Positions 8,602 to 53,557 of a DNA stretch of 64,000 nt are shown here, one piece after another; positions within the stretch are counted from its first letter, which is position 1; the number at the start of each line of letters is the position of its first letter. Below the pieces are notes generated by a model. It ran no database searches, was not told the DNA's origin, and saw only the letters and a list, made by a program, of their open reading frames with translations. The translations under genes and the position numbers were made by a program. The DNA lies in the IMG/VR virus record IMGVR_UViG_3300045988_131126; one strand, given 5' to 3'. This DNA is from a virus.

Positions 8602-10539
8602 TTATTTTATTTTCTTTAAATATGGTTTAAAATCTTTAGACTTATCAGAATCTCTTATAATAGGTCTAAATGTATTTTCTGGATCATGATAAATTGGATT
8701 ATAAAATCCACTTTCTATATCAGGATAATGATAAATTGGATTATAAAATCCATCACTATTTATATCAAGCATTGGATTTATTGGGAACCTTACTTTAGTA
8801 AAGAATTCATCAAAATCTTCCATCATCTCTCTTATAGATGCTAAATGGAACCAACGTTTACCAACTTCAAGGTAGTTTCCGTTATTAAAGTCCATAAGGA
8901 ATCTACCACCTCTATAATAAAATTCATATCTAAATGGATTTTCATTTTCATATACTTGTGTAGGTATTTCTAATCTACCAACTTGAGTATTTGGAGCCAT
9001 ATTATTTTCTCTTGCAATACTTGGATACAGAGACTTATAATCAAAATCTACTAGATTATCCATAATATTTAAAATCTCTCCATTTTGCTTTAATTTAGAA
9101 TAATCGCTATTATGCTTAGGATTACCTACTAAAGCTCCAGGGAACTTAACGTTACTATTATTTCTATTAACGTTATTACCAATAATAAATCCCTGATTAT
9201 AGAATTCTTTTGCTCCTCTATTTGTAAGATAAACAGTCTGTCTGTGACCTTTATCATATCTTGTATTATTCATTACACACTTACCAAAGATATAATCTAT
9301 ATCACCGGTTTTAACTTCAATACATTTCTGAACAATTGTATCGACGATATTATAGAATACAAATGTCTTATAATCTAAATATGGTAATTTAGAGATATCA
9401 TGTGTAATATGAGAATAATCTAATTTATTTACACCTGCTATAACTTCACCGATATCATCCAATTTAAATGATTTAAATGCTGACTGACCTTTACGTCTTG
9501 AAGCAAATTGAATCATTTGGTCCAATAATACTGTATACATAGAAAACGTATATCTATCGCATCTCTCTGCATATTCATTTCTATGTCTTTCATCTATATA
9601 ATACTTAGCAACTTTCTTTTCAAAAGCTGGATGAGACATGATCTCTGCTGGATCATATCCTAAGTTAATTATTCTCTCATATATATACGGAATATCGAAT
9701 GCCATGTTCCATGCCAATAAGAAGTCTGGTTCATATTTATTAATAAATTGAAATAATGAATATATTAATTGGATCTCTTCATCAAAGAATGCAAGACGTA
9801 CATCCAAATTATCTACTCCATATTTTTTTGCTTTTTCTGGTCCACCTACAGTTGTTATTAAAAACTCTCTTAATTCTTTAAATAAATTTGGATCGGTTTT
9901 TGCTTCATGTTCAAATTTTTCTATTAACGGATTATTTGGGTTTCTTAATAAAAATACTTTTACAAGATTTTCTTGTTCTATTATACATGATACTGCATTT
10001 ATAGGACACTCTCCCATCTCTGGAAAGTCTCCTTTCATATCTATAGTATCAGCCTCAATATCGAAGAATGCCTTCGTTACAGGACAAATATCATTTTTAT
10101 AATATAAATCAAACATGAATTTATATCTGTCTTCTATATTAGAATCACTAAATAATATATTAGGTAATTCGTGTAATAATTGATTATTTCTAAATTGACC
10201 AGTTCTTAAATTCTCATAAAAGAATTCTTCGTTACCTGTATTCTCAGCAATAGATTTTAATAAATCTCTATATTTACAAGTAATCTTATCTACTTTCTCT
10301 TTCTCTACAATAAACAAATTATGATCTGTTGTATATTCAGGTTTTAATTTATAATAATCGAAATCTGGCTTCATAATATACCTATGACCTTTTTTACCAG
10401 TTTCTAAATCTTTATATATCATAAGCATATAATCTGGATCATATTTTCCATCCTCTCTCTTTTGAGGATAATGATATCTATTATCTAATAAAGTAATATT
10501 ACTATTAAAAGGATATCCTTTAATTAATTCATCGCTCAT
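8602..10539 (-). CDS. family-B DNA polymerase, N-terminal part (3'-5' exonuclease + motif A)
   Basis: Exo I FFDIEADT, Exo II WNMAFDIPYIY, Exo III YNIVDTIV and motif A DFDYKSLYPSI occur in order. No KxxxNSxYG or YGDTDS appears before the stop. The C-terminal tail carries 2x GFYNPIYH. Confidence 0.8.
   Translation of the reverse strand: MSDELIKGYPFNSNITLLDNRYHYPQKREDGKYDPDYMLMIYKDLETGKKGHRYIMKPDFDYYKLKPEYTTDHNLFIVEKEKVDKITCKYRDLLKSIAENTGNEEFFYENLRTGQFRNNQLLHELPNILFSDSNIEDRYKFMFDLYYKNDICPVTKAFFDIEADTIDMKGDFPEMGECPINAVSCIIEQENLVKVFLLRNPNNPLIEKFEHEAKTDPNLFKELREFLITTVGGPEKAKKYGVDNLDVRLAFFDEEIQLIYSLFQFINKYEPDFLLAWNMAFDIPYIYERIINLGYDPAEIMSHPAFEKKVAKYYIDERHRNEYAERCDRYTFSMYTVLLDQMIQFASRRKGQSAFKSFKLDDIGEVIAGVNKLDYSHITHDISKLPYLDYKTFVFYNIVDTIVQKCIEVKTGDIDYIFGKCVMNNTRYDKGHRQTVYLTNRGAKEFYNQGFIIGNNVNRNNSNVKFPGALVGNPKHNSDYSKLKQNGEILNIMDNLVDFDYKSLYPSIARENNMAPNTQVGRLEIPTQVYENENPFRYEFYYRGGRFLMDFNNGNYLEVGKRWFHLASIREMMEDFDEFFTKVRFPINPMLDINSDGFYNPIYHYPDIESGFYNPIYHDPENTFRPIIRDSDKSKDFKPYLKKIK
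8686..8752 (-). repeat. perfect 25-nt direct repeat inside the polymerase 3' end
   Basis: Plus-strand ATGATAAATTGGATTATAAAATCCA at 8686..8710 and 8728..8752. It encodes GFYNPIYH twice. Confidence 0.9.
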
Positions 10540-10674: not shown

Positions 10675-11649
10675 ATGGATTTAATATATCACGATTACTC
10701 ATCCGATTCATATAACCCATCTGAAAACCAACCTGTAGTAGCAGGAGTTAAAGATGAAGATATAGGAATAGATTTTTCTAAAATAGGTCAGGATGATTCT
10801 CTTGTTATTTCTTCTCCTGTTGGAATTTCAGAAGAAAAGCCGAAAAGAAAACGAAGAACTGGCGACCCTAATAAAGTAGTAAAAGTTTCTGAGAGTAAAT
10901 CTTCTTCTAATAACAATGGTTTAGAACCATTTGAGAAGAAATATGAAGAAACTAATAGTATGCTTAAAGAAGTAATTGCACAAACCAATATGAGTATGGC
11001 TGATATCAACGAAGATATCAGATTACTTCGTAATTCTAAAACCGTTAGAAATAAATATACTTATTTAAGTAATTTAACAGATGCTTCTGCATCAATGCTT
11101 AGCAATAAACTTAATGCTATTAAGGAAATGAATAACTCTATTACAAAGGCACAAGACTTTGAAATGAAACGAGCTAAAGAGCTTCATCTAAACGATAATG
11201 TAGATGATGATAAAGCTATTCAAGATATGTATAAAGCTTTCGTAACTGCATCAGTTCCTAATCCTTATGCAGCACTTGGACCAACATCCAGAGATATGAC
11301 TGTACGTAATGATGCTATTATAGCAGGTACAATACCTAATAATACTATGGATGATGTTGCTGCTTATAATAATTATGTTCAAAATATGACTCCTCAGCAA
11401 CATATGATTGCATTGGAGAATGATCCTAATGTACAGCAAGTTGTAGTTTGGAACAAATCTACAGGAGCTAAATCATTCGAAATTATGAATATGGCTACTG
11501 GAGAGATTCTTCAGAATGTAGATAAACATGATATTATGTTTATGGAAGATACTACTATAGATGAAAGAAATCATACAGCTAGAAATATCAAACTGAATGA
11601 ATCATATCCTCTTGTAGTAATCGGAGAATCTGCTATCGATGAATATTAA
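10675..11649 (+). CDS. hypothetical protein with N-terminal LIYHDY..YNP motif and KPKRKRR basic patch
   Basis: AAAGGAG SD precedes ATG 10675 (the track GTG start at 10660 lies inside the SD). The protein begins MDLIYHDYSSDSYNP. Confidence 0.65.
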   Translation: MDLIYHDYSSDSYNPSENQPVVAGVKDEDIGIDFSKIGQDDSLVISSPVGISEEKPKRKRRTGDPNKVVKVSESKSSSNNNGLEPFEKKYEETNSMLKEVIAQTNMSMADINEDIRLLRNSKTVRNKYTYLSNLTDASASMLSNKLNAIKEMNNSITKAQDFEMKRAKELHLNDNVDDDKAIQDMYKAFVTASVPNPYAALGPTSRDMTVRNDAIIAGTIPNNTMDDVAAYNNYVQNMTPQQHMIALENDPNVQQVVVWNKSTGAKSFEIMNMATGEILQNVDKHDIMFMEDTTIDERNHTARNIKLNESYPLVVIGESAIDEY

Positions 11650-15175: not shown

Positions 15176-16480
15176 TTATGCATTTATATTTAATGCTTTA
15201 AATGCACTTTCACGAAACTTTAAATAACCTTCCACATTCGATTTAATAAATCCATCTGGGATAAGTTCAAATGTATCTGGAATCATTTTGAAATTTAGCA
15301 GATTAGCTATAGAAAAGATACCTCCCATTCTATCTATTTCGAATTCTTCGTCATCAGAGAGATCATTTATGATAAATTTTAATATATCGTATGCAATCTT
15401 TATAATCTCTTTCTCTGATCCATTAATATTTCCAGGAATAGTAATTAAACGTCCAGCAGGAAAATCATTACTAATTTTAGACATAGAAAAGGATTCTGAC
15501 ACAGCCATTATATATTTATCACCATTATATTCACAGATGCATGAATATAATGGTGTATTTAACCATTCATCAATTTCTACATCTTTTATATACTTTTCTT
15601 TCTTCGGATTCATGTAATCAAAACGCTTAATTGCACGTTTATCTTCGCTTGTGGCTTTAGGCTTTTTATCTAAAAACTTGGTAATGCATGGTATCACGTT
15701 TCTAGTAAACCCTGCTAATTCTTTAATGTCAGCTTCATCTAATAGATTAGATAAAGGATCATCTTCTTCGACCATGCTCTTTAAATTATTGAGAGCCGAC
15801 TTTTTATATTCTCTCGTGTTAAGTATACTATCATAGAACCATCCGCACTCTTCATCTACAAATAAATTATTTTCAAATTCTGTAGGATAAAATGATGCTA
15901 CTGTAAGGAATAATGAAGACAGTGCTGATGGTATAGCATATTGCTGATTTATATCATGGTATATAAGATTTACAAATTCTTTCATTACATGAATAAATGC
16001 TTTTATAATTTCGGTATTATTGCTTCCTAATTTATCGAGAAAATCTTTATATTTTTCTCCAATAGCAAGTATAATAATTTTCTTATTATCTTCTAAATTT
16101 ACTGCCTGTGTAATATATTCATCTTTAAATGAATCGTCTATGGCAAATACAGTTATAGTATCTTTATCAGCGTTGGGGCATACACCAACAAATACTCCTC
16201 TACTATCTTTATTGCAATCATGAAGAAATCTATTTTCTTTAAATAAGCTCCCTTTTATCATAGCTGCTTCAATATTTGCCATAACGAAAGCTTTATCATC
16301 AGTTGATATAGTATCTCCGTAGTTCGGAGCTAATATATTAACTCCATCATCAAAATTAATAGATCCTTTCATTAAAAGTGCTACCTGTTTTACATCTTTG
16401 CAAAAATTCTGATTCTCTGCGCAAAATTTATTCATTTCTTTAGCGAATTCTATTTTTTCTTCCATTGTTAAATTTCTCAT
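15176..16480 (-). CDS. hypothetical protein (domain related to 16748..17491)
   Basis: Start moved to ATG 16480 (AAAGGAGAA SD). It overlaps the upstream stop as ATGA. No Mre11/SbcD phosphoesterase motifs. Confidence 0.6.
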   Translation of the reverse strand: MRNLTMEEKIEFAKEMNKFCAENQNFCKDVKQVALLMKGSINFDDGVNILAPNYGDTISTDDKAFVMANIEAAMIKGSLFKENRFLHDCNKDSRGVFVGVCPNADKDTITVFAIDDSFKDEYITQAVNLEDNKKIIILAIGEKYKDFLDKLGSNNTEIIKAFIHVMKEFVNLIYHDINQQYAIPSALSSLFLTVASFYPTEFENNLFVDEECGWFYDSILNTREYKKSALNNLKSMVEEDDPLSNLLDEADIKELAGFTRNVIPCITKFLDKKPKATSEDKRAIKRFDYMNPKKEKYIKDVEIDEWLNTPLYSCICEYNGDKYIMAVSESFSMSKISNDFPAGRLITIPGNINGSEKEIIKIAYDILKFIINDLSDDEEFEIDRMGGIFSIANLLNFKMIPDTFELIPDGFIKSNVEGYLKFRESAFKALNINA

Positions 16481-16782
16481 AGTGTTTTCTCCTTTTCTTT
16501 TAGTGCTTTGCATACTTCTATGAAATCTTCCATTTTTGAAATTTTCATTGGTACCGGAACACATCCAGTCCAATCTATTTTAAATATTTCTTTGCATTTA
16601 TTGCATTTGAAATATCTAAAACTTCTGTTTTTAAGTTTACTTGTGTCATGAGTACTTAAAAGCATTTGATAATTAAAAGGTCTATTGTAATTATCAAACA
16701 ATTCAAGACTGTCCAAAGCATTACACTTTGGACAGCTCTCGTGATGATCATGATATATCAAGGGTCGTAATGTCTTCGTCAT
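16477..16782 (-). CDS. zinc-ribbon protein with N-terminal PLIYHDHH motif
   Basis: CPKC..(43 aa)..CNKC four-Cys arrangement. SD GAAGAGGA upstream. Confidence 0.6.
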   Translation of the reverse strand: MTKTLRPLIYHDHHESCPKCNALDSLELFDNYNRPFNYQMLLSTHDTSKLKNRSFRYFKCNKCKEIFKIDWTGCVPVPMKISKMEDFIEVCKALKEKEKTL

Positions 16783-17491
16783 TTTCTATATCCTCTTCAT
16801 CAAATAAGATTTGTTCATATCCTAAACAGTCTCCTATAGTTGTAATTTCATTGTAATCGAATAATGATGTATACCAAACATTATTTTTACAATGTTCTTT
16901 TATATATCTGACAAACTGTTTTAAAGGCTCATACTCACGAATATGTTCTGGTAATTTAGAAATAGGTGTCAGCATTGCTGGAATGTAGAAACAACTAAGA
17001 TTATATGCTCTTTCTGCATAATTATCTATTTCACTCATTCCATCAATTAAACCTAATGCTGATAAACTATACATATATTCATTGGTAAGTACCTCGTATA
17101 CTTTAGTAATCAATGCAAATTCTCCACTGTATAATTCACCAGTAAATAAAATTGTGTAACAATCATCTCCGTATTTAACAGTGCATACTGACAGGAATAA
17201 AGATCCTGCAACGGCTTTCTGGTCATCTGTTAAATCGCTACTTTTAGAAGCTACTTCAACAAATTTATCGACAGATTCTTCATTAAGTTCGCATATAATG
17301 CAATGTACATGCTTATCTTCTACTTTTGTAATTCTACCGATATTAGATACTTTAATACCTCCTGCTGATAAGCACGCTACAGATACAGCTTTTGATAACT
17401 GATCATCTGCAAGTACTTCAATTGTTTCCTTCGGGTTTGGTTCATGCTGAATTAATTGGTTTAATGTTTCTGCTACTTTTGTGTAAATCAT
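16748..17491 (-). CDS. hypothetical protein
   Basis: Start moved to ATG 17491 (AGGAGG 8 nt upstream). ATGA overlap with the upstream stop. Confidence 0.6.
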   Translation of the reverse strand: MIYTKVAETLNQLIQHEPNPKETIEVLADDQLSKAVSVACLSAGGIKVSNIGRITKVEDKHVHCIICELNEESVDKFVEVASKSSDLTDDQKAVAGSLFLSVCTVKYGDDCYTILFTGELYSGEFALITKVYEVLTNEYMYSLSALGLIDGMSEIDNYAERAYNLSCFYIPAMLTPISKLPEHIREYEPLKQFVRYIKEHCKNNVWYTSLFDYNEITTIGDCLGYEQILFDEEDIENDEDITTLDIS

Positions 17492-18390
17492 AATTCTGTC
17501 CTCCTGTATACATAAATGATATATGTGATCTTGCCATCTCCCACTTTTTTCATGCAGGAAATACAAGCGTTCACCGAGTCATGTAACTTCTTAAGAAGAT
17601 TATCTTTATTACGTTTATCAGTTATTGCAACTGATACATCACAACTTGGATTATTGCAATCGAATATATAATTTGTCTTTGCAGAATGAGGTATCTTATT
17701 TTTATCCTCATCTTCTACAGACCCTACTAAATACGTATGAACGTATTCAATATTAGCCAAATTCTTTCTTTTTTCTATAAATAAGTTAACTGGTATATCC
17801 ATTTTAAGATAATCGTTATGTATATTAAAAGTTATTTGTATTTTATCATAAACTTTTATCAATTTAAGTAATGAATTAGGTAGTTCTTTAGGCAATACGC
17901 TAACGTTGAAAACTTTCTTATTTTTTGCAAAATCATCTATTTCTGATTCAATTTTTATAGATGGATTTATAATTTCTTCATCTTTAGAAGATAATATATT
18001 CTTGAAAGGTTTTTTAAATTTTATATCAGAGTTTATAATTTTCTCTGTATCAGAAATATAATTCTTAACGGATAATACTATTTTATCAGTAATTTCATTT
18101 TCTATTTTATCAGCTTCGTTATCCGGAATATGATCTTCATGCTTGTCTAAAATATATCCATATGGTAGCACTATTACATCAAAAATTTTATCAGTTTCAT
18201 ATATAAAGTTATTCCCAGATAGATATATTATTATGGATTCTGATCTTGATTCTAAACGTATTCTAATAAATACTTTATAATCTTCTGATGATATATTCAT
18301 TATATTATCGGTATCTGGATAATCTACATCATAATTATCTAGAAAGTCTTTAATACAGATAACTAAATCATTAGGTAGTGTTTTGATCAT
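17488..18390 (-). CDS. hypothetical protein
   Basis: 300-aa ORF, SD AAGGAGA. Confidence 0.6.
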   Translation of the reverse strand: MIKTLPNDLVICIKDFLDNYDVDYPDTDNIMNISSEDYKVFIRIRLESRSESIIIYLSGNNFIYETDKIFDVIVLPYGYILDKHEDHIPDNEADKIENEITDKIVLSVKNYISDTEKIINSDIKFKKPFKNILSSKDEEIINPSIKIESEIDDFAKNKKVFNVSVLPKELPNSLLKLIKVYDKIQITFNIHNDYLKMDIPVNLFIEKRKNLANIEYVHTYLVGSVEDEDKNKIPHSAKTNYIFDCNNPSCDVSVAITDKRNKDNLLKKLHDSVNACISCMKKVGDGKITYIIYVYRRTEL

Positions 18391-19049: not shown

Positions 19050-20813
19050 TTATTCTGCTACAGCTATACTATTAGGGATACTCTCAATATTATCAATTTC
19101 CTTGTTAATACGAGCTATAGGCGTAATCAATTTCTCAATAGAACTAAGAGTATCTTGAATAACTGCTAAACGTTGTTCTTCAACATTAACTCCGTTTATA
19201 GTTCCTTGATATTCCAATGCATTTTTAAGACCTTCTAACTGAGCATATTGAGCTAATACTTGATCAACTTCTGCTCTCCAGTTATTTGGCTCTTTATAAT
19301 CACTAAAGAAGTTATTATGAATTGAAGCCATCGGGCAAAGCATTCCAGATAATCCTGGATCATTTGCTGTAGAGCTATCCAAATCCAATCTTCCCAAGTG
19401 AGTAGGATGTACTTGTCTATAATTTACTGGAATAGATGCAGTATTACCATCTCCAACTCCACTTACTCCTTTATAAGTGAATTTAAGAGCTGTAATAGCA
19501 TCCATATCATTTACGCTATTATTATAGTTTACCAGACTGTCTTTCGAGATCTGTTTCAATAGAAAATCTGGGAATGTATAAATAGCTTTCTCTAATCTAT
19601 CTATCTGCAATTTGGAAGCTTCATCAGATATTCTATAAAGGCCTGTAGCTAATTTAATAGCATAAATAGCTCCAAAATATTCTTCATATCTGATACGCTT
19701 TGTAGATATATCTAGATTGTCTTTCTTTCTTAATTCATTAAATTCCCTAAGAATCCATATAATTATATCATAGATATTCTTTTTACATTCTTCTGGAAGT
19801 TTTAAGTTTTCTTGAGTTGGAATATCCAATATAGATTCAAGAGAATCTAATACATTTAATCCTTTCTCTACAGTCTTATTGTTGTAAGAATCTCCAAGTA
19901 CTGCTATCCAATACTCTAATGTATAGACATTATTCAATGAGGTTTCCCTTGACACTGAATTATATACAGTATACATTAAACTCTGAGCTACAGGATCATT
20001 ATCATATATATACTTAGGTAATGAAATATACATATTATTTTTCTTTACCGTGTAATAATCATCCTTTTCGATATCATGATCTGAAATGTACAGATCATTT
20101 ACTTTTAATAATTGACAAGTTTGATAGAATCCAAATCTAGCCAATAAGTATCTCATAAGAGGACAATTCTTCTTAAAGATATTACTCATATACCAGATGC
20201 ATTCTTTAGTTTCTCCATTTGTCATTTTAAGCTTCTCTATATATCTATAGATTCTAGATGCCATAAATAAAGTTTTGAAAGCTATATTTTGTGACTTTGG
20301 ATTTGCAGAATTGGAATTATTATAAGTAGATCCATCCACTACCTGATATAGAGATGAATATATATTTCCAAATATTCTGAAATAATATTTGTCAACGATT
20401 TTAGGTACTTCTATAAGCACCCTGAGATTTTTAGATCTAGGAGATCCCTCTTTAGGATTAGGGACCTCCAGATAATAATCAACGATTAATAATCTTATAT
20501 CGGAATCTTTTAACGGGATATAATTATATTTATCGTCGATTTTCTGTTTATTTTTATTCTTAGATTTGAATTTCTCTTGCTCACGCAATAATATACGTAT
20601 TTGCTGATAATCATCCACCACAGAAAAATTCATTACTTTAATGACAAAGTAACGATCTCTCTCGATAGATAATATAACCTTTTTCAAAACTTCTATTATT
20701 GCATCATCAGATCTATTAAATAATTCTGGGTTAAATTGTGGCCTATTCTTATCATTATATTCTCTTATAAAAGAATATTGATTAGGTTCGATCACTTCTC
20801 TATTCACATTCAT
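19050..20813 (-). CDS. multisubunit RNA polymerase beta subunit, N-terminal half
   Basis: YRQVHPTHLGRLDLDSSTANDPGLSGMLCPMA matches the bacterial beta block RDVHxSHYGRxCPIETPEGxNIGL. The ORF stops ~110 aa later. Start moved to ATG 20813 (AGGAGG upstream). Confidence 0.7.
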   Translation of the reverse strand: MNVNREVIEPNQYSFIREYNDKNRPQFNPELFNRSDDAIIEVLKKVILSIERDRYFVIKVMNFSVVDDYQQIRILLREQEKFKSKNKNKQKIDDKYNYIPLKDSDIRLLIVDYYLEVPNPKEGSPRSKNLRVLIEVPKIVDKYYFRIFGNIYSSLYQVVDGSTYNNSNSANPKSQNIAFKTLFMASRIYRYIEKLKMTNGETKECIWYMSNIFKKNCPLMRYLLARFGFYQTCQLLKVNDLYISDHDIEKDDYYTVKKNNMYISLPKYIYDNDPVAQSLMYTVYNSVSRETSLNNVYTLEYWIAVLGDSYNNKTVEKGLNVLDSLESILDIPTQENLKLPEECKKNIYDIIIWILREFNELRKKDNLDISTKRIRYEEYFGAIYAIKLATGLYRISDEASKLQIDRLEKAIYTFPDFLLKQISKDSLVNYNNSVNDMDAITALKFTYKGVSGVGDGNTASIPVNYRQVHPTHLGRLDLDSSTANDPGLSGMLCPMASIHNNFFSDYKEPNNWRAEVDQVLAQYAQLEGLKNALEYQGTINGVNVEEQRLAVIQDTLSSIEKLITPIARINKEIDNIESIPNSIAVAE

Positions 20814-21441
20814 AACTGCCTCCTGTAACGTCAATACTCATTGCTGTACCAATCGGGTTAGGAACGTCCGGCTTGGAATCCTGTAACGTAAGAGTTAACT
20901 TCATATCTAAAGCATCAGCCATTCGTTCCATCATAGTTAATGATACCGTATTTTTATTGAAAATACGTTTGTCATTATTATAATTAGATCCGAATCTATG
21001 CTCATAGTTATCTAGGTTAATATGTTTCTTATTCACCGCTTCTTTTAAAAGTCTCATAGCAGGTGAATCTTTTTCGTCAATAGGATATACTGACGTATTG
21101 TCCGGATTGGTCAATACGTCTTTTTCCATATTGATAACCGTTTGCTGTAAATTAGCCAACTCATCATAGCTTTTAGCTTTACTGAAATCTACTAATTTAT
21201 CTTTACTATATGCTTTTTTATCTTCTGCTGAGGTTGGTAAATATACTCTAGAAATCGTCGGACCGACATCTATACCAACCTTGTTTGCATTATTTAAAGT
21301 ATTACCCGTTAATATAGGTAACACATAATCCTCATCTTCAATTGCTACATGTCCAGATACATAAGCATCTGGATTCTTAGTGTAAGTCTCTAATGAAACT
21401 ACATCATAAAACTTTTTATTTAATTCTGCAACGCCAGCCAT
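20800..21441 (-). CDS. hypothetical protein
   Basis: 213-aa ORF, SD AAAGGAGA. 14-nt overlap with the next gene. Confidence 0.6.
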   Translation of the reverse strand: MAGVAELNKKFYDVVSLETYTKNPDAYVSGHVAIEDEDYVLPILTGNTLNNANKVGIDVGPTISRVYLPTSAEDKKAYSKDKLVDFSKAKSYDELANLQQTVINMEKDVLTNPDNTSVYPIDEKDSPAMRLLKEAVNKKHINLDNYEHRFGSNYNNDKRIFNKNTVSLTMMERMADALDMKLTLTLQDSKPDVPNPIGTAMSIDVTGGSYECE

Positions 21442-21520: not shown

Positions 21521-22120
21521 TTATTCTGTGGCATTTTCAGATGAACTATCATCATCTTTAATCAGTCTCTTAACTGCTCCATCTGGAATGAATGACATAA
21601 CTTTCTCACCATCGATCACATCAACTGTTGCTACGAAATATGGATCGTGCTTAAGTTCGAATGTACTTCCTTCAACAGCATTCTGATCGAGGAAATCTTT
21701 CAGTAATGAGAAGAATAATGTTGATAACTGAGATAATACATCTGGTGCACTAAATCTTACTTTGAAGTCATCGAAACCACGTTTTGCAATAACTTCCTTT
21801 GGACCGGATTCATAGATACTGTATGTTTTACAATCCTTAATATCTTCTGGATCGAATGTAAACTCTACAGACCAGTTGCCCGGATTACCATCTTCGCCCT
21901 CGATATACTCTACAGTAGCAGCTGCTACCATATTTCCTTTGATATCTTCGAATACTAAAGCGGTTTTTTCTTTCTTGGATTTTACCTGTTTTAAGAAATC
22001 GACAGTTCCAGTAATACTGAACTGAATTACCTCAACTACATCTCCAAAGTTTACTGTCCATGACAGTCCTTTGCACTCCTGGATCATGTTTGCGATTAAG
22101 CTGCTGTCTGTTAATTTCAT
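21521..22120 (-). CDS. hypothetical acidic protein
   Basis: 199-aa ORF, SD AAGGAGG. Confidence 0.6.
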   Translation of the reverse strand: MKLTDSSLIANMIQECKGLSWTVNFGDVVEVIQFSITGTVDFLKQVKSKKEKTALVFEDIKGNMVAAATVEYIEGEDGNPGNWSVEFTFDPEDIKDCKTYSIYESGPKEVIAKRGFDDFKVRFSAPDVLSQLSTLFFSLLKDFLDQNAVEGSTFELKHDPYFVATVDVIDGEKVMSFIPDGAVKRLIKDDDSSSENATE

Positions 22121-22255: not shown

Positions 22256-24628
22256 TCAGAATGATTTAGTTTCTAACCCTATATAATTTTTAAAGTCATT
22301 AACTGTCATCATTTTAATGTTATATTTTAATGCTTTTTCACATTTGCTACCTTGATTATATCCATCGTACGGAACCAATAAGATAGCTGTGTCTTTTGTT
22401 ACTCCTGCATTTCCATCTGCATCGTAACCCATTTCGTCTAAGATAGATTCAAGAAATTTATCTCTAAATCCTGTAAATCTAATCTTCTTACGAATTTTAA
22501 AACTACCATAAGAATTCTTATAGTTGAATTCATTTACTATGAAATGAATATCATCCTTAAATGAATTCCACTCTTCTATGATAGTTTCTGTTGTATTTGG
22601 ACCTATACCTTTAATGGTACAGAACATATCTTTTACGTCATCGATATACCCTCCATCTAAATATTGAATTATATCAACTAATGCAATCTTTTCGAATATA
22701 ATTCTCCAAGTTTTAGCTGATAAGTTACTAAATCCCAAAGCTCCGATTAATATATAATCTGGAGTTTCGTTATTTTTGATAGAATCTAATTGATCTTTGA
22801 ATTTAGCTGCATTTGTAGGACCTATAATTTCAACCATTTTATCATATGGATAATCATACAGTTCTTTTAAAGATCCAATCCCTAACGCTGCCATTCTTTC
22901 TTCGGCAATATCCTTGATTCCTAATTTAGCTATCATATTAGAAATCCTCTTTGCTTCTTTACCGACACAATGAAGATTCATACAATAAGCTGCTTTACCA
23001 GACTTAGATATCGTAATCTTACCACCACAGAATGGGCATTTATCTGGAAATACTTCATCTGCTTCTGGTGGTCTATTATGATTATCTCTATTAAATTGAA
23101 TATCTGGTTTTGATACATACGGCATCACATCATGATTATAATCAATATCAATTACATCTCCTTTATAGAGATTTAACTTATTGAAATGCTCATAAGAATA
23201 CCCTGTTGTATGATCATGTATAGCTCCTAAGAACTCTACAGGATCAAAATAAAACATTGGAACTATCATTCCAGATTGACCAATACTATATTTGTAACCT
23301 CTAAATACCGAATGACGTCTCATTGGATTAAATTTTACTGCCATCTTATATTGATCAATGGAATTCTTTCTACCAAGTTTCTTTCTAATCTCAGGATCGT
23401 ACATCTCTGCAACTATTCCATCATACATGAACGGAAGAAACGAGCGCGCAAATTCAGCTTCTTCTGCATATCTTTTAATTTGGAATAATATACTTTGATA
23501 ATTTCCTGAAATAGTCTGATGCTTAAACATGATCTCTCTAGTATAATACCGATTCATGAACTCGATTTCTACTAAACGATCTAATGGTTCTCCATTCTCA
23601 TCTTTTAAAGATGTCTGTAATGGAACCAATGTTATAAAATCTCTATATCGGTATGAATCAGATCTACCTAATATACCAATAATTGCAGTTCTTCCATTTA
23701 TATAATGATTTCCTGTTAATCTATTGATATTATCGAGGTTATTATAGCTTACAATAGCTTCAAACTTCATACCGATAGTTTCCCCTAAATCTACAGCATT
23801 GGGAAACTTATACCCTTTAAATATAGGTGTCAAATCACTTGCTTTCTCAAGATCTGTATCACCTCTTGTCCTTGCAGATATCACCTCTGTATTTACATCA
23901 GCCTCTATAGATATTCCATCATACTTTAAGCTGAGTATTACATCTAACTGATCTGTAGGCTTTATTATATTACTCAATATCATCGGAGCAATCCAATCTC
24001 GCTCCAATACTACCACATTGCTTTGATTGAAAACTCCTCTTTCAATCGCATCAGCACTTAATACAAATTTAGACTTGTGTAATGTACCAACAAGTTCTGG
24101 ATGCTCGTGCTGAGTATTTCTTAATCTCTTCGTGACATCATTGCTCTCTGGTAATAAATCCTTTGCAAAAATGTCATTACTATTAAACTCTCTTCTGATG
24201 TTTATGATGCTTGGAAACATCATATTATTCATCTTTTCAATTTCATCATCCGGTACATGCATTATCGGATTTGACATTTTAGTTTCTTCAGTCTCCATAA
24301 ATTGGGAAGCTGAACCTGCTAAATTTTGCGGAGTCGCTCCAGATTGAATATCTGGTACATACTCCCTCACTTTTTCTAATAATAAATCGTATACTCCATC
24401 ATCTAATAATAATATATCTAAATCACTATTATTATATAAATTATTAGATATTTGGATTATTAGTACACCTTTTTCTACGTCCTCCTTATTCCATACCGGC
24501 TTACTCATTAGGCTCATTGTTTCGTTATTGATCATTTCTTTTGAATCGAATATGATATCTGTTAATGAACCTGAATTAGTAACCAGATTGTTTTTTAAAG
24601 ACTTAAGTATAGTAATATTGTTATCCAT
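22256..24628 (-). CDS. ligA: NAD-dependent (LigA-type) DNA ligase with N-terminal extension
   Basis: KYDGISIEAD (KxDG). LigA-type Cys4 finger CPFCGGK..CMNLHC. HhH-like GIKDIAE and IKGIGPNT. BRCT-sized C-terminus. The ~120-aa N-terminal extension carries NPIMHVP. Confidence 0.7.
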   Translation of the reverse strand: MDNNITILKSLKNNLVTNSGSLTDIIFDSKEMINNETMSLMSKPVWNKEDVEKGVLIIQISNNLYNNSDLDILLLDDGVYDLLLEKVREYVPDIQSGATPQNLAGSASQFMETEETKMSNPIMHVPDDEIEKMNNMMFPSIINIRREFNSNDIFAKDLLPESNDVTKRLRNTQHEHPELVGTLHKSKFVLSADAIERGVFNQSNVVVLERDWIAPMILSNIIKPTDQLDVILSLKYDGISIEADVNTEVISARTRGDTDLEKASDLTPIFKGYKFPNAVDLGETIGMKFEAIVSYNNLDNINRLTGNHYINGRTAIIGILGRSDSYRYRDFITLVPLQTSLKDENGEPLDRLVEIEFMNRYYTREIMFKHQTISGNYQSILFQIKRYAEEAEFARSFLPFMYDGIVAEMYDPEIRKKLGRKNSIDQYKMAVKFNPMRRHSVFRGYKYSIGQSGMIVPMFYFDPVEFLGAIHDHTTGYSYEHFNKLNLYKGDVIDIDYNHDVMPYVSKPDIQFNRDNHNRPPEADEVFPDKCPFCGGKITISKSGKAAYCMNLHCVGKEAKRISNMIAKLGIKDIAEERMAALGIGSLKELYDYPYDKMVEIIGPTNAAKFKDQLDSIKNNETPDYILIGALGFSNLSAKTWRIIFEKIALVDIIQYLDGGYIDDVKDMFCTIKGIGPNTTETIIEEWNSFKDDIHFIVNEFNYKNSYGSFKIRKKIRFTGFRDKFLESILDEMGYDADGNAGVTKDTAILLVPYDGYNQGSKCEKALKYNIKMMTVNDFKNYIGLETKSF

Positions 24629-25867: not shown

Positions 25868-28156
25868 TTATTTTTTAAGAAGCTCTTTCATCGCTTTATT
25901 TGCTCTATCATTAACCTCTGTTGAATACGTTTCTATATCTTTACTCTGTGTACTTGCATCCATTTTCCAAAGCGGTACATGATAAATTGGATTAGCTTTA
26001 AATTTCTTATCTACTTCTAGATCACGTTTAATAGATTTATTAAAATCGTATTTTTCTTCATTAGAAATATGATATATCGGATTATATGATGTATAATCAT
26101 GATAAATCGGGAATTTCTGAACTGGATCTTTCCAAGTTCTTCTTACTTTCTTGAATTTCAGTCTAAGGCCAATGGTCTTAAATCTTACATTGAAAATCTC
26201 GGCAGATCTATCTACAGATTTTTCATCAAGTTTAATATCTACATTATATGGATCATCCGTATATATACTCTGCATTAATAATCTACCATGTGGTGATGAT
26301 GAATAAAGCATCATCATTTCTTTTACAATAGCGACAGGCATATGTGTCATATCACCATTTTCCATTTCACCCATTCTAATAGGTGTACTCTGATGAACAG
26401 ATTTAAAGTTTTTAGAAGCTTTATTTCTACTGTTCTGATTTCTAATATTTGTAGAAGACAATGATGTTACTGAGAACTTATCTTCAGCGTACTGTTTCAA
26501 CCTATAAAAGTATAATCTTCCACATACAATAGGTCTTCTACTTGGTACCATTCGTACATTACCGGTACTTCCTTTAATTGGTACATATAAATATCTAGGC
26601 GTTACATACGAAAATCTATCATAAATCTCCCCTAATCTATCTGTAGTTATAGATTCTGATATTGGTTCCATACTTAGAACAATATGATCTGATTCGATCA
26701 TTCCTAATAAATATTCTTTCTTATATGAAATATCCCAACTATTAAGCAGATATCTTAACTGTGCAGCTTGTAACGGAGAACACATTTCAATGAAATCGGT
26801 CACTTCTTTTAATGCTTCATCCACAGTAAACGGAGTTGTGGATATATATCTTAAAATTTCTGATCCAATAAAGTTCAATTCAAGTTCTTTTAACTGTCCA
26901 TCGTTCAGTCTATTTGTACATGTAGATGAATTTAATATTACTTCAACTCTTGTATTGGATCCTTCTAATACTGGCATTAATTCATCAGGAATTATTCTAC
27001 TGATAACTCCTTTACCGCCATATCTATTTGTAATTTTATCCCCAACCATTGGGACAGATTCTTCCATTACAGTAAAATGAATTACTGTACCTGAATACAC
27101 TTTACCTTTCTCTATATATTGAGCATTTGATATCTCGGATTTTGCTCTATTATAGATAGCATCAAGTCTACCTTTAATCTTTGTGTAACCAAGATCCTTT
27201 AATTGATCTACAGTTTCTACAATTTCTCTCAAGTATCGTTGTTTATTATTATAATAATAAAGCAACTGAGCATTAGTTCTTTTCTCCTGTAATTTCTCTG
27301 GAGAGTTGCAGTTAATGTCAATATCAATAACTTTGCCTGATTTAACCATCCATTTAGTATCAGACATAACAGTTTCTCTTAATTTCTTTTTAGATTGCAT
27401 AAATAATGCATCTTCATTTTTCTCTCTACGAGTAGCAAATAAAATACCATTCCCAACTTCTTCTCCAATATCAGGAAATGATTTGATAAATTCATCATCA
27501 CCTCTAAGATTAAGAGGGATATCATTATCATTGGCAATAGCTTTAACTTTTTTAAACAACGGTGCCGCCAATTTCTTAGCTGCAGATTCAGAGATATTGA
27601 TAGCATCTTCCATCGTACTAGCAGCTGCTATGTATGCTGTTACGAGGTTAACACCAACACCCTGATTATTATAATGATCATAGCTTGTGGACTTAGCTAT
27701 GATTTCTCCCTCTGGAATAGTATCTTCTACTCTATAGGAGTCTATTTGCGAATTATTCATAGCATATCCATAAGATTCTGAATTATGCTTATAGCATTTC
27801 CTTTCAATAATTTGAATAGAATCGTCCTTATCATCAGTACAAATAAGAAAATAATGATGACCAGGAACCTTTTCAAACTTCTCAATTTTACGTCTAATAC
27901 GTAAATCCCCATCTGTTTTCTTAATAGATGCAGATAAATCACCAAATCTGATTTCATAACCAGTTTGAATAATTGGTGGTTCTGAATTTAATATATCTAA
28001 TGCGTGTTCTGTCTGAATACCTGCTAATATTTTTCGAGGTCCAGAGTTGTTGTTATTGAATGGCATTAAGTTTCCTTTACCTAATGCATATTCCATTTTA
28101 GTAATTCTTTTTGCTTCATTTTCAAGAAGCGCTTTGTCGTTGTCCGTCCTTGCCAT
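25868..28156 (-). CDS. multisubunit RNA polymerase beta subunit, C-terminal half
   Basis: MPFNNNNSGPRKILAGIQTEHAL matches beta IPFLEHDDANRALMGxNMQRQAVP. GDKITNRYGGKGVISRIIPDELMP matches GDKxAGRHGNKGVxS. Start moved to ATG 28156. The C-terminal tail carries 3 (F/N)PIYH copies. Confidence 0.8.
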   Translation of the reverse strand: MARTDNDKALLENEAKRITKMEYALGKGNLMPFNNNNSGPRKILAGIQTEHALDILNSEPPIIQTGYEIRFGDLSASIKKTDGDLRIRRKIEKFEKVPGHHYFLICTDDKDDSIQIIERKCYKHNSESYGYAMNNSQIDSYRVEDTIPEGEIIAKSTSYDHYNNQGVGVNLVTAYIAAASTMEDAINISESAAKKLAAPLFKKVKAIANDNDIPLNLRGDDEFIKSFPDIGEEVGNGILFATRREKNEDALFMQSKKKLRETVMSDTKWMVKSGKVIDIDINCNSPEKLQEKRTNAQLLYYYNNKQRYLREIVETVDQLKDLGYTKIKGRLDAIYNRAKSEISNAQYIEKGKVYSGTVIHFTVMEESVPMVGDKITNRYGGKGVISRIIPDELMPVLEGSNTRVEVILNSSTCTNRLNDGQLKELELNFIGSEILRYISTTPFTVDEALKEVTDFIEMCSPLQAAQLRYLLNSWDISYKKEYLLGMIESDHIVLSMEPISESITTDRLGEIYDRFSYVTPRYLYVPIKGSTGNVRMVPSRRPIVCGRLYFYRLKQYAEDKFSVTSLSSTNIRNQNSRNKASKNFKSVHQSTPIRMGEMENGDMTHMPVAIVKEMMMLYSSSPHGRLLMQSIYTDDPYNVDIKLDEKSVDRSAEIFNVRFKTIGLRLKFKKVRRTWKDPVQKFPIYHDYTSYNPIYHISNEEKYDFNKSIKRDLEVDKKFKANPIYHVPLWKMDASTQSKDIETYSTEVNDRANKAMKELLKK

Positions 28157-28250
28157 CTCGCACAACCTCCTTAAATTCATTTTTATTGAAATAGCTATAT
28201 TAAATCATAGGTATAATATATGATTATACCTATGATTTACCCTTTTTATT

Positions 28251-30834: not shown

Positions 30835-31998
30835 TTAAAATTCATCATCAATCTCTTTAGCTTTTTTATCCTCTGAAAGTTTATTAAAGAAATTAGCTTT
30901 ATCAATAACAGCTTTGTTCTTTTTCTGCGTTCCAATATCAAAGTTGCTATCATCATTGGCAAATGTCTTTTTCTGCATATTACCAAAGAATGTATCTTTA
31001 TCTTTATTTACCATTGCAGTCATTTTCTGATATTTATTATATACAGATTCTACTTCATCCATAGGCATTTTAGAGCCTGCAGAAATAAATGCAATGAATT
31101 GATCCATATCAGATTCATCCTGAATATGCTCAAATTTATCATAGCACTGACCAAATCTTTCAGTAAGAATATCATCATAATCAATATAATCTGTAGAGTC
31201 TTTCTTAATATTGATAATTACTGCCATTCTAGTCTGACTAGGTTCATCAACATCAAGAGTTTTAGAATTATCGATCATATCAATTACGATCTTTCTAAAC
31301 TGCTCTCTATTTTTAATCTTATCTTCAATTACAGCAGATTCAATAACCATATATCCATCTGTAGTAGAGATTTTAAGTAAATCTGTAGGGTCAATATTAT
31401 GATCAGAATCTCTTAACTGTAATCCGATAAGTACAGAAAGCTTTTTGCAGAAATCGATATCTGCTTTTTCTTCTGCTTTAATTCTATTATTATTGCATTC
31501 TGGAAGATATTTTTTAAGTTTAACTGCTTCTGTAGCGAAGTTATTCTGTAATTCTTGGAATATTTCTACAGTGTTCTTTGTTCCTCTTACATCTTCCTGG
31601 AATCCAATAAAGAGAAATACATGTACACTAATACCTAATACTTCTCTAATATATTTTGCAAGTAAAGGAGTAGAACCTGAACCGGTTCCACCTTCAGTAG
31701 AACTTACAAGAACTACTAATTCTGCTTGATCTTCTTTTCCAACACTCAAGAACTCTTCTAATGGAATTGTACCGTCCTGGATTGAATTAGCACATAAGTC
31801 GTAACTCATCTTTCTTTCCTTACCGCATCCGCCATAGCTATTGCTAAATTCGATAGCTGAGCCAGTGTAGTCTTTTGGAATATCTTTAAGAGTACTATTA
31901 ATCAGCATGGTATTTTCTACACTGATAATATCATTTCTAACTGCACAGATAGCAGCTTTGTTTCCTCCAGCACCAATTCCAATTAATTTTGTAATCAT
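30835..31998 (-). CDS. tubulin/FtsZ-superfamily GTPase (PhuZ/TubZ-like)
   Basis: GIGAGGNKA (T1 loop). STEGGTGSGSTP (tubulin signature GGGTGSG-like). Acidic C-terminal tail ..KEIDDEF. SD AAGGAGG. Confidence 0.8.
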   Translation of the reverse strand: MITKLIGIGAGGNKAAICAVRNDIISVENTMLINSTLKDIPKDYTGSAIEFSNSYGGCGKERKMSYDLCANSIQDGTIPLEEFLSVGKEDQAELVVLVSSTEGGTGSGSTPLLAKYIREVLGISVHVFLFIGFQEDVRGTKNTVEIFQELQNNFATEAVKLKKYLPECNNNRIKAEEKADIDFCKKLSVLIGLQLRDSDHNIDPTDLLKISTTDGYMVIESAVIEDKIKNREQFRKIVIDMIDNSKTLDVDEPSQTRMAVIINIKKDSTDYIDYDDILTERFGQCYDKFEHIQDESDMDQFIAFISAGSKMPMDEVESVYNKYQKMTAMVNKDKDTFFGNMQKKTFANDDSNFDIGTQKKNKAVIDKANFFNKLSEDKKAKEIDDEF

Positions 31999-33876: not shown

Positions 33877-34608
33877 TTATGATCTTGTTACGAGATTTTT
33901 CTTTTTACGTAAAGAATAATATGTATAATTATCTTTATCAATAAGATTAGACGTAATATGAGCACCTAGTAAGTAAGTATTTAAAAGGTTCTTAGAAGAA
34001 GCTCCATCTACAGACTTAGGTATATCTTTTAACTTAAACATACCTGTGCTACTAATTTGATTATACATATAGTTTTTAGCTTGCATATCGTCACCTCTAG
34101 ACCCAGCAAACTCTTCCATAGTATTAGTTAATCCCCAGGATGCTAAAGACTCAAACTCTCTATCTGATGTCAGTGCACCTTTATCTCTACCTACTAATCG
34201 TCCAGTCTTATTATCTCTATTAGCAATACTACTAGACCATTTGTTTTTATGGGTAATAAACTGCTGTACTTTCTTAAGATGTAAATACATTACTGTACAT
34301 TCTTGAGATGCTACAGCTCTACCATTCTTATCTCTGTATAATGCAGGTGTATATATTTTTTCTGTTAAAGGTACATTTATAATCTTCAAAGCTTCTATAA
34401 TATCTGTCATAGAAGGATTTGTAGTACCAGTTCTCATTTGGAATCTTATCGGATATTCTTTCTTCATCCAATTCATGAATTGAGTGTCTGATAATTTACT
34501 AAATAAATCTTTATAATATTTAGTATTAGTACCAGAAGTATCAACTCTATCCATTACTTTTATTATTAAATTCTCCACTTGTTTTCTTTTTTTAGGATCT
34601 AAAGCCAT
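33877..34608 (-). CDS. hypothetical protein
   Basis: 243-aa ORF downstream of the fibre cluster. Confidence 0.55.
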   Translation of the reverse strand: MALDPKKRKQVENLIIKVMDRVDTSGTNTKYYKDLFSKLSDTQFMNWMKKEYPIRFQMRTGTTNPSMTDIIEALKIINVPLTEKIYTPALYRDKNGRAVASQECTVMYLHLKKVQQFITHKNKWSSSIANRDNKTGRLVGRDKGALTSDREFESLASWGLTNTMEEFAGSRGDDMQAKNYMYNQISSTGMFKLKDIPKSVDGASSKNLLNTYLLGAHITSNLIDKDNYTYYSLRKKKNLVTRS

Positions 34609-44112: not shown

Positions 44113-44120
44113 AAAAGATT

Positions 44121-44148
44121 ACCCCATATACCATATGGTATATGGGGT
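44121..44148. terminator. hairpin between convergent genes
   Basis: 12-bp stem ACCCCATATACC-ATAT-GGTATATGGGGT. Confidence 0.6.
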
Positions 44149-44152
44149 TCTG

Positions 44153-52152: not shown

Positions 52153-52614
52153 ATGAATAAAAAACATAATGGATGGGTTTCTGAAACTAAATACTATCTT
52201 AACGATTTAATATTTATATATACAGATTTAAATACAAATAAGAAAATTCTGTTATTTCCTGGTAAATATGTAGCATTAATATACCCATTCGAGAAAATGT
52301 ACCCAAATATACCGTTTTCATGGTTTTATCCATTCGGAAGTCCTGTCGGATTTTACTGTGGTATTCAATATATGTTAACGTATAATTTACGCGATGATAT
52401 TTATTTTCATTATACAGTAGCGCAAATGCTAAATATCTATCGTCATATTTGTATTGCTAATGCAAATATTCCATATAGATATTTATCGTCAAAATTGGCA
52501 TCGCTGTTCGGAATAAACTCATACGATGTTATACAATGCAGAAGTTTATTCCGGCCATTTACAATTGGCCCAGATATAAATATGGAGATAAAAATAAAAG
52601 GAGGAGCTAAATAA
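52153..52614 (+). CDS. small hypothetical protein, family A (1/2)
   Basis: SD AAAGGAGA. Shares IYFHYTVAQMLNIY with LEYHFTIANMINLL of the next gene. Confidence 0.6.
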   Translation: MNKKHNGWVSETKYYLNDLIFIYTDLNTNKKILLFPGKYVALIYPFEKMYPNIPFSWFYPFGSPVGFYCGIQYMLTYNLRDDIYFHYTVAQMLNIYRHICIANANIPYRYLSSKLASLFGINSYDVIQCRSLFRPFTIGPDINMEIKIKGGAK

Positions 52615-53093
52615 TGAATAGATACAAAATAGAAACAAAGAAAGAATACTATTTATATGATCCAAAAATTACAAGTATAGTTTTTGATAAATTCAATAGA
52701 AATGCACCCTTTTTTATCGATACCGATCCTATTATAATTATAAATCATTATTTGGGTCGCGAAATATATATAGCCGGTAACTATAAAAAATGTTTTAGAG
52801 ATAAATTTTGTGATTCTAGATTATTTTATTTTAGATTGTCTATGTATTGTAGAAGGGTAAATACTTGTGATACATTTATCTTGTATAATAGATATTATCT
52901 AAGTGAGGATTTAGAATACCATTTTACTATAGCAAATATGATAAACTTACTACTGATATATTCAATAGACGAAATGTTTTATGATATGGTAAATTATATA
53001 TACGCTTTGTATTGTCCTTTATCTCCAGATTTGACAAGAGAAGTGCATTATAATTATAAAAATGAAAATCAAAGGAGGATTTATGATGTTTAA
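52614..53093 (+). CDS. small hypothetical protein, family A (2/2)
   Basis: The ATG shares one nt with the upstream TAA. SD AAAGGAGGAG. Confidence 0.6.
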   Translation: MNRYKIETKKEYYLYDPKITSIVFDKFNRNAPFFIDTDPIIIINHYLGREIYIAGNYKKCFRDKFCDSRLFYFRLSMYCRRVNTCDTFILYNRYYLSEDLEYHFTIANMINLLLIYSIDEMFYDMVNYIYALYCPLSPDLTREVHYNYKNENQRRIYDV

Positions 53094-53529
53094 ATTACCA
53101 TCACTTATTAAAAGAAAAAGACACTCAAATTTAGTAAAATTAATAGATATTCCTGCTCGTGATATCAACGATATGGATATTATGACGTATATCATATATC
53201 TTTGGGAATATAAAGATATGCATCATATTGGATATATTATTTCAAAAGCTAACGAAAGACATTGTGATAGATGGGTATTATACGCATATTCTGATAAAAG
53301 AATAACTGAATACTTTAGAGATAGATGCCCTGCTATCGTAGAAGAAGAAATTTTAAGTATTAGTAATAATAGAGATATAACAAACCATTTATCTAAAGCA
53401 GCTACAGGATTATATAACGGAGGTATTCCGATTGTTAAGCCAAAACAGTATTGGGGGGAAGATTGCTTACGCATAGATTGGGATAAAGACGTAAATTACG
53501 CTATTATAAATGACGTAATAAATATGTAA
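53083..53529 (+). CDS. small hypothetical protein
   Basis: AAAGGAGGA precedes ATG 53083/53086. The track start at 53062 precedes the SD. Confidence 0.55.
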   Translation: MMFKLPSLIKRKRHSNLVKLIDIPARDINDMDIMTYIIYLWEYKDMHHIGYIISKANERHCDRWVLYAYSDKRITEYFRDRCPAIVEEEILSISNNRDITNHLSKAATGLYNGGIPIVKPKQYWGEDCLRIDWDKDVNYAIINDVINM

Positions 53530-53557
53530 AGAAACAAATAAGAAGGAGATTATACTT

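Follow-up and report, generated by a model that had tools for sequence, protein, structure and literature searches.

A short peptide shared by RNA polymerase, DNA polymerase and ligase of an uncultured AR9-related jumbo phage is a candidate docking motif that changes in concert between lineages

Short terminal peptides, sometimes repeated and common to unrelated proteins, are sufficient for targeting in the case of the cargo peptides of encapsulins and bacterial microcompartments and of the Rubisco-binding motif of the pyrenoid. In bacteriophage T4, the C-terminal tail of the polymerase gp43, T4 ligase, and gp33 and gp55 of the late transcription complex are all bound by the sliding clamp gp45 (PMC7892883; PMC6212786), and late transcription is made replication-dependent through gp45 (PMC7892883; PMC6212786; PMC2988020). 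Here we describe a peptide, (F/N)PIYH, in a 64,000-nucleotide stretch of DNA (the window; 30% G+C) from an uncultured jumbo phage, IMG/VR virus record IMGVR_UViG_3300045988_131126. It was noticed in the C-terminal tail of one half of the beta subunit of an RNA polymerase (RNAP). Sequence comparison indicates that it is not a feature of RNAP as such and is instead one tag of at least five proteins, otherwise unrelated and all engaged in DNA or RNA transactions, which covary in this peptide genome by genome.

The open reading frame (ORF) at 25868..28180 on the minus strand (770 aa; phrog_3295, E=4e-96; Pfam Rpb2_6) is the C-terminal half of the beta subunit of an AR9/phiKZ-type non-virion RNAP, with an Rpb2 domain 6, a split beta subunit and AR9-like gene order, and is the orthologue of AR9 gp089. 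Its closest matches in 50,697 GenBank phage records are the non-virion RNAP beta C-halves of AR9 and PBS1, at 32% identity, and the adjoining gene for UvsX is a neighbour kept in AR9. The Rpb2_6 match ends at residue 574, conservation within the family near K678 and the GenBank phage alignments by residue 687. Beyond this point the ORF, whose end reads ...RRTWKDPVQKFPIYHDYTSYNPIYHISNEEKYDFNKSIKRDLEVDKKFKANPIYHVPLWKMD..., encodes an 83-residue tail (residues 688-770; 25871..26119, minus strand) that is absent from AR9 and reads QKFPIYHDYTSYNPIYHISNEEKYDFNKSIKRDLEVDKKFKANPIYHVPLWKMD... A first-pass annotation made from the sequence alone had reported three (F/N)PIYH copies in a tail beyond the last recognisable beta block, and we find both the tail and the copies as it described them: FPIYH at 26099..26113, NPIYH in the middle of the tail at 26069..26083 and NPIYH at 25979..25993, all on the minus strand. 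Two degenerate copies on the same strand complete the set, namely PVQK (26114..26125), the first half of a first doublet that is complete in relatives (e.g., RGVLVKGVSY, KPFTIKPIS), and VPLWK (25964..25978), the second half of the last doublet. The middle copy is followed by an acidic element, ISNEEKYDFN (26039..26068, minus strand), which is kept across lineages (..SEEEKGFDI..), unlike the variable motif.

An AlphaFold2 (AF2) model of the beta C-half, built from an 86-sequence alignment, has a mean predicted local distance difference test (pLDDT) score of 78.8, with about 90 in the core and 51-78 in the tail. All of the motif copies in the tail lie in segments devoid of regular secondary structure, separated by a helix at residues 713-729 and with a helix at residues 746-769 at the end. 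As modeled, the tail fits a set of short linear motifs on a flexible segment, not a folded repeat domain.

A six-frame scan of the window, together with a scan of its 55 proteins, showed that the peptide extends beyond RNAP. The strict form P[IM][YFM]H has six matches in the 55 proteins, where shuffled sequences give 0.10 +/- 0.32, and only three enzymes account for the six: three in the RNAP tail, two in a DNA polymerase tail and one in the N-terminal extension of a nicotinamide adenine dinucleotide (NAD)-dependent DNA ligase. The first of the additional carriers is the N-terminal fragment of a family B DNA polymerase (8602..10539, minus strand; exonuclease domain and motif A; phrog_3011, E=9e-52; Pfam DNA_pol_B_exo1), the orthologue of AR9 g132. 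Its 74-residue C-terminal tail (8605-8826, minus strand), which by alignment is absent from AR9, has NPIYH at 8728..8742 and 8686..8700, both on the minus strand, within the stretch FYNPIYHYPDIESGFYNPIYHD. This polymerase is split; the ORF stops after motif A (DFDYKSLYPS), AR9 g132 is annotated likewise, and DTDS and KxxxNSxYG motifs occur in no window protein, so that the gene for the catalytic C-terminal fragment (motif C) lies over 50 kb away or beyond the window. The ligase (22256..24628, minus strand; phrog_3869, E=2e-74; Pfam ligase domains from residue 220) has about 100 more N-terminal residues than AR9 g095 and bears NPIMH (NPIMHVP, residue 120; 24257..24271, minus strand) ahead of the first ligase profile match, in the linker between a QVGA-type block and a KR..NT.H.YP.LVGTL block.

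Two further carriers were recognised through their relatives. The N-terminal half of the RNAP beta subunit (19050..20834, minus strand; 594 aa; phrog_2943; signature VHPTHLGRLDLDSS..DPGLSG) aligns over residues 111-526 to AR9 g105, the non-virion RNAP beta N-half of that phage, and is its orthologue on this alignment. Near its C-terminus it has a degenerate copy, TPIAR (LITPIARI; 19110..19124, minus strand), at the site where related proteins bear their own motif about 25-35 residues before the C-terminus (e.g., RPFIHTDEG, KPMIFADQG, KKEMCRIV, TSPIVFD). The first-pass annotation had raised the question of whether other RNAP pieces carry the motif; the beta N-half does so in this form, and the small RNAP piece at 33877-34608, a piece of beta, remains at background level. 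The last carrier, brought out by a count of own against foreign motifs described below, is a 324-aa protein of no assigned function (10675..11649, plus strand) that is divergent from the DNA polymerase gene and that we call the AT-hook protein. It consists of a disordered motif-bearing N-terminus, an AT-hook-like KPKRKRR, a long helical hairpin and a small beta-rich C-terminal domain; an AF2 model (62 sequences) leaves the first 80 residues disordered and is confident in the C-terminal domain. The extreme N-terminus carries the variant DLIYH (10678..10692, plus strand), in the context MDLIYHDY, comparable to FPIYHDY in the RNAP tail, and N-termini in relatives read MMNVMYHDY, MIKPFTIG, MIRAFTIG, MARLFTEV, MKKMVTF and MAELLEIATRV.

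Several other resemblances were set aside. A PIYH translation at 44120-44149 is encoded by different nucleotides outside genes; this segment, which separates convergent genes, is a perfect GC-rich palindrome (taccccatataccatatggtatatggggt) that forms a hairpin and probably terminates transcription in both directions, and PIYH is read on both of its strands by coincidence. Extra IYH tripeptides occur in NLIYHD, around residue 200 of ORF 15176-16573 (minus strand), and in DHIYHL, near the N-terminus of ORF 16748-17566 (minus strand). These are compatible with chance, about one occurrence of the tripeptide being expected, and both families are poorly conserved. The likeness of NPIY to the eukaryotic NPxY motif of phosphotyrosine-binding (PTB) domains is a coincidence of one lineage, other lineages bearing unrelated peptides. 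The acidic element of the RNAP tail has loose D[FY] lookalikes in the tail of the DNA polymerase ([IL]D[FY]S.YL) and, in the AT-hook protein, downstream of the N-terminal motif (G[IV]DFSK). The idea of a "DF" element as a second, invariant component was rejected, as the fixed patterns G[IV]DFSK, [IL]D[FY]S.YL and G[FY]DF.K match just 10/120, 31/120 and 23/109 family members (8-26%).

The beta C-half has 979 homologues among 5.8 billion proteins, on contigs of up to 275 kb, and tails were compared in the top 120 of these and in 120 DNA polymerase homologues. All 120 of the beta C-half homologues have a tail (median 71 residues past the last conserved block), and in 83 of these tails one hydrophobic 3-of-4 pattern occurs three or more times, as opposed to 2/120 shuffled tails and 1/120 core segments. 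The layout is conserved in the order doublet, single copy, acidic ..SEEEKGFD.. element, helix and doublet, and the peptide that fills it changes. PIYH in the window phage becomes PMYH or PMMH in relatives at 75% identity, and other lineages have PV.Y, GV.Y, GM.Y, KPF.., AFT., PLM./LM.K., RLFS, PI.F, PFIH, IA.R, VMC..V, K[VI]W or [IV]PA[IM]. More than 15 related lineages of uncultured jumbo phages have a differing peptide at the same positions, shared by all carriers of one genome (permutation p <= 5e-5 for the DNA polymerase and the AT-hook protein); at least about 12 distinct motif classes were seen. The copies inside one RNAP tail are closer to each other than to the orthologous copies of other lineages. 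The DNA polymerase tails have the same peptide repertoire as the RNAP tails, ligase orthologues in the same loci bear the motif of their own genome once or twice between the QVGA and KR..NT.H.YP.LVGTL blocks, and the motif site, at a terminus or in a linker, is constant in every carrier family. The first-pass annotation would have taken a lack of conservation of the motif residues in relatives as a refutation. Read literally, this is what we see, but the residues change in concert in all of the carriers, and such concerted change speaks more strongly for function than conservation would.

Two observations on the relatives stand apart from this comparison. In the IMG/VR contigs 3300031555_004524 and 3300029305_005371, the beta C-half frame ends around residue 583, short of both the conserved C-terminal blocks and the tail, which could reflect a further split, an intron or intein, or a frameshift; the DNA polymerase tails of these relatives keep a clear KLFHK in three copies. 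Additionally, a 246-kb contig filed at NCBI as a metagenome-assembled genome of a "Candidatus Izemoplasmatales bacterium" encodes a phage beta C-half and a phage DNA polymerase; almost certainly this is the genome of a jumbo phage placed in a bacterial bin by error, and its label could hint at the host range.

We assessed the covariation genome by genome using 80 IMG/VR loci for each of the RNAP beta C-half and the DNA polymerase, with permutation p-values that are to be read alongside the tally of distinct motif classes, a dozen or more. The 27 contigs with both genes all share a lineage peptide between the RNAP and DNA polymerase tails (e.g., GM.Y/GM.Y, PFIH/PFIH, VMC..V/.MC..V, K.W/K.W). 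Exact 3-mer sharing in 19 non-redundant genomes gave a diagonal sum of 58, compared to 23.9 +/- 6.5 after permutation, a value reached in 2 of 100,000 permutations, and the same test on a core segment of the DNA polymerase, used as a control, gave no signal. When 4-mers were scored with BLOSUM against the RNAP tail in 18 non-redundant genomes, the observed value was reached in 0/20,000 permutations for the DNA polymerase tail, 1/20,000 for the AT-hook protein N-terminus, 128/20,000 for the ligase linker (p ~0.006) and 392/20,000 for the beta N-half C-terminus (p ~0.02); the C-termini of UvsX and the portal protein, the negative controls, were not significant. Similarly, across all ORF families in about 40 kb per genome, occurrences of the own genome's motif exceeded those expected from other genomes' motifs in the ligase (30 vs 2.7), the beta N-half (9 vs 1.6) and the AT-hook protein (6 vs 0.2). 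Portal, sheath, SbcC, UvsX, tubulin and the small RNAP piece were all about 1, and these families and the virion proteins remained at background.

The distribution of the motif also follows the divide between this clade and its cultured relatives. The window shares with AR9 the gene order UvsX, beta C-half, NAD-ligase and beta N-half, as well as SbcC, the DNA polymerase N-fragment, portal and sheath. The AR9 counterparts of the carriers are 91-119 residues shorter, and the parts that they lack are exactly the four motif-bearing segments: past the aligned core, gp089 and g105 each extend by 8 residues and g132 by 14, and the ligase g095 lacks the ~100 N-terminal residues. The RNAP tail is therefore a lineage-specific add-on, as the first-pass annotation proposed, given the short end of AR9 gp089 and the architecture kept in 120 metagenomic homologues, but its motif is not specific to RNAP. 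For the AT-hook protein, and for three further families of unknown function conserved in the module, tblastn gave no GenBank phage match and hidden Markov model search none in the syntenic AR9 regions. Because AR9 lacks all four segments and any detectable counterpart of the AT-hook protein, the motif system would have been gained as a unit, and it looks like a single innovation of the uncultured clade.

Between the beta N-half and the ligase lie two proteins of unknown function, at 21521-22120 (199 aa) and 20800-21441 (213 aa), both on the minus strand and present in 18/18 related genomes examined. The former has a nearly invariant acidic C-terminal tail (..IKDDAA.E), and the latter a helix-turn-helix-like segment and, close to the C-terminus, a DVPNP[IM]G that does not vary. 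Neither has a Pfam, PHROG, PDB-sequence or GenBank-phage match, and profile searches with the 199-aa and AT-hook families against PDB sequences and Pfam returned nothing. We regard the 199-aa and 213-aa proteins as candidate partners of the module.

The peptide is uniform within a genome, replaced concertedly between genomes and absent as a set from the nearest cultured relatives, which argues for a common docking partner. We consider it probable (roughly 0.65) that (F/N)PIYH is a docking motif shared by proteins that bind one co-evolving partner. The attributes of short linear motifs (a length of 3-10 residues, location in disordered regions, recurrence in unrelated proteins and evolutionary plasticity) are all found here, with binding to a globular partner as the predicted element. 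The copies on the flexible RNAP tail would be short linear docking motifs, and the same genome-specific peptide on disordered termini or linkers of the DNA polymerase N-fragment, NAD-ligase, beta N-half and AT-hook protein would bind the same phage-encoded partner. As the binding pocket of this partner drifts, the motif of every client would follow, so that the peptide varies between lineages and remains uniform within a genome. The presence of several copies per client (three strict and two degenerate in the RNAP tail) may provide avidity for an oligomeric, ring-shaped or lattice-like partner.

Such a partner, possibly a clamp-like platform or a replication-factory scaffold, would tether DNA polymerase, ligase and the late (non-virion) RNAP to the same DNA-associated platform or replication factory and could couple late transcription to replicating DNA, functionally by analogy with T4 gp45. 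The sharing of the motif, its covariation, its position in flexible segments and its all-or-none absence from AR9 are direct observations, and from these we infer the receptor, its nature and the coupling function. The narrower proposal that the partner is specifically a DNA-bound clamp-like platform is doubtful. The host beta-clamp is an unlikely receptor, as a partner conserved across bacteria would not be expected to drive motif turnover between related phages. Nor is the AT-hook protein supported as the receptor with its N-terminal motif as a self-ligand, with AF2 leaving the N-terminus disordered and undocked and Foldseek finding only coiled-coil hairpins.

Several points weigh against a common docking partner. 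No clamp, clamp loader or chimallin is recognisable by PHROGs or Pfam among the ~55 ORFs of the window, which covers 64 of ~275 kb, and the phiKZ-type polymerase group is described as being without a classical sliding clamp (Iyer et al. 2021, PMC7824862). The AF2 model of the AT-hook protein leaves its own motif undocked, and the conserved unknown neighbours returned no structural or profile matches. The covariation p-values for the beta N-half (0.02) and the ligase (0.006) are modest, and the beta N-half copy in the window, TPIAR, is degenerate. Moreover, related genomes are not independent samples, so that the permutation p-values make the independent events look more numerous than they are.

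The main alternative for the receptor keeps the common-receptor core and places the receptor in a compartment instead of on DNA. The peptide would then be an address, targeting enzymes into or onto a phage-built replication compartment or condensate via a shell, scaffold or import factor. Three genes upstream of the RNAP gene, a tubulin/PhuZ-like protein is encoded (30835-31998, minus strand; phrog_4733, E=8.8e-8; Pfam Tubulin, E=6e-7, short of the curated cut-off), which would suit such a compartment, as would the multivalency of the clients (5, 2-3 and 1-2 copies), appropriate for binding to a lattice or condensate, and the location of the motifs at termini and on flexible linkers, as in cargo-loading peptides. 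The clients also belong to enzyme classes that are imported into the chimallin nucleus (ligase, non-virion RNAP; PMC13282480). However, AR9-like phages fall outside the Chimalliviridae and lack chimallin (PMC13282480), there is no chimallin-like match in the window, and import into the known phage nucleus relies on folded surface patches and Imp factors, not on linear signals (PMC13282480; 10.64898/2026.09.21.753271). UvsX, SbcC and the small RNAP piece, which would be expected to need the same address, are also without the motif. On balance an address of this kind seems rather unlikely. The tubulin/PhuZ-like gene itself sits in the replication/transcription module and is kept in 12/18 of the related genomes examined.

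A receptor would be unnecessary if the peptides bound each other. Short beta-prone peptides could pair as a strand zipper, through which the carriers co-assemble, and the need for copies to match would account for uniformity across a genome. The motif does have a beta-strand-like hydrophobic-x-hydrophobic unit, often after P or G, the doublets of the RNAP tail could form hairpins, and no receptor turned up. Yet AF2 shows no strand pairing within the tail despite its five copies, motifs this short (4-5 residues) and flanked by polar or charged residues make weak zippers, and the single-copy clients (beta N-half and AT-hook protein) would bind poorly, all of which makes homotypic pairing improbable. 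Still less probable is that the tails help the fragments of the split beta subunit and split DNA polymerase to find each other. Three carriers are fragments of split enzymes with motifs at fragment ends, but AR9 has the same splits without any tails, the unsplit ligase and the AT-hook protein, which is no enzyme fragment, both bear the motif, and the same peptide on RNAP and DNA polymerase would cross-wire two different enzymes.

The identity of some copies at the nucleotide level had suggested a different kind of explanation. The third RNAP copy indeed uses the same 15 nucleotides as the two DNA polymerase copies, AATCCAATTTATCAT at 25979-25993, 8728-8742 and 8686-8700, as noted in the first-pass annotation, which took this to mean nucleotide-level constraint or recent gene conversion. 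This 15-mer has the commonest codon at each position (AAT 0.82, CCA 0.47, ATT 0.44, TAT 0.84, CAT 0.87) and is thus the most probable encoding of the peptide. In simulations from codon usage, a given NPIYH copy was the exact 15-mer with P=0.12, and at least three of four copies were identical with P of about 0.02. Gene conversion is not needed when the 15-mer is the likeliest codon choice, and conservation at the peptide level is indicated by synonymous changes in other copies (CCG, ATA), with the ligase, beta N-half and AT-hook copies differing further. Nucleotide identity between the RNAP and DNA polymerase copies ends at the motif edges, and extra flank is shared solely between the two DNA polymerase copies (21 nt, TTTTATAATCCAATTTATCAT), which is compatible with local duplication inside that tail. 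A nucleotide element or recent conversion between genes, favored by the three identical 15-mers and the 21-nt identity, is largely refuted by the codon choice, the absence of flanking identity and the synonymous differences, and by the conserved unit of other lineages being a degenerate peptide class and not a DNA word; we give it hardly any credence.

Returning to a common docking partner, the fullest form of the proposal is that a large uncultured AR9-related clade gathers its DNA polymerase, ligase and late RNAP on a previously unknown hub via a linear, rapidly co-evolving address peptide, the hub being either a non-classical processivity or toolbelt factor or a non-chimallin compartment scaffold or shell. 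We hold this version tentatively, at somewhat under even odds; if true, no linear code for sorting or docking would have been described in phage replication factories before it. Should the motif prove to be such a code, it would offer a handle on the missing organiser of replication and late transcription in jumbo phages without a recognised clamp or chimallin, and a natural experiment in hub-client co-evolution, with more than 12 motif versions switching concertedly in five proteins. It may also couple late transcription by a phage multisubunit RNAP to DNA replication, in convergence with T4, and may act as a speciation or incompatibility barrier, since in co-infection a lineage's enzymes would fail to dock on a foreign hub. 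Finally, such peptides could serve as portable tags for sending proteins to phage replication sites.

Elsewhere, the window has a phage-encoded GroEL-like chaperonin (50315-52090, plus strand; phrog_5725, E=1.4e-46; Pfam Cpn60_TCP1) and a run of six ORFs of 153-164 aa at 52153-55010. Three of these, within 53558-55010 (plus strand), are paralogues (ORF 53558 vs 54522, 39% identity, E=8e-43; ORF 54049 vs 54522, E=2e-5).

A linear peptide shared by jumbo-phage polymerases or ligase did not come up in full-text literature searches. As with the encapsulin, microcompartment and pyrenoid tags, a short peptide is common to unrelated proteins; the clients here, unlike theirs, are viral nucleic-acid enzymes, and no shell or matrix partner is known. 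Chimallin nucleus import (Imp1/PicA, Imp3-7) is similar in that the same class of cargo, ligase and non-virion RNAP, is sorted by phage-encoded recognition, and differs in using folded surface interfaces and no linear terminal signal (PMC13282480; 10.64898/2026.09.21.753271), where the present system has a linear peptide in flexible segments; neither chimallin (ChmA) nor Imp1/PicA was found in the 64-kb window.

The beta-clamp motif (QL[SD]LF) and the PIP-box (PCNA-interacting protein box) are likewise hub-client motifs with a hydrophobic core, found at terminal or disordered sites of polymerases and ligases (PMC11139829; PMC9690074), but they are conserved across whole domains of life and usually occur once per client, whereas the peptide here is genome-specific. 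It shares with clamp clients its presence on several DNA-transaction enzymes, at termini or in linkers predicted to be coil or disordered. None of (F/N)PIYH, GM.Y, KPF, PFIH, IA.R, VMC..V and K[VI]W fits the clamp consensus QL[SD]LF, QxxhxxFF or the T4-type ..LDFL.., and membership in the clamp-motif family is not established.

The closest parallel is T4 gp45, where, as here, polymerase, ligase and late-transcription machinery display one short peptide class at flexible ends, and one phage-encoded hub, predicted in the present case, binds them. The two differ in that the motif described here is on the phage's own multisubunit RNAP and not on sigma-like adaptors, has up to five copies per client, is of unrelated sequence and changes radically between related lineages, no clamp is detected in the window, and the phiKZ/AR9-type group is reported to be without a classical one (PMC7824862). 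Taken together, the kind of system, a hub with short linear motifs on its clients, is already known, and the novelty lies in the motif family, with its multivalency and its extreme turnover from lineage to lineage, in the occurrence of the motif on both halves of the RNAP beta subunit, and in the phage group.

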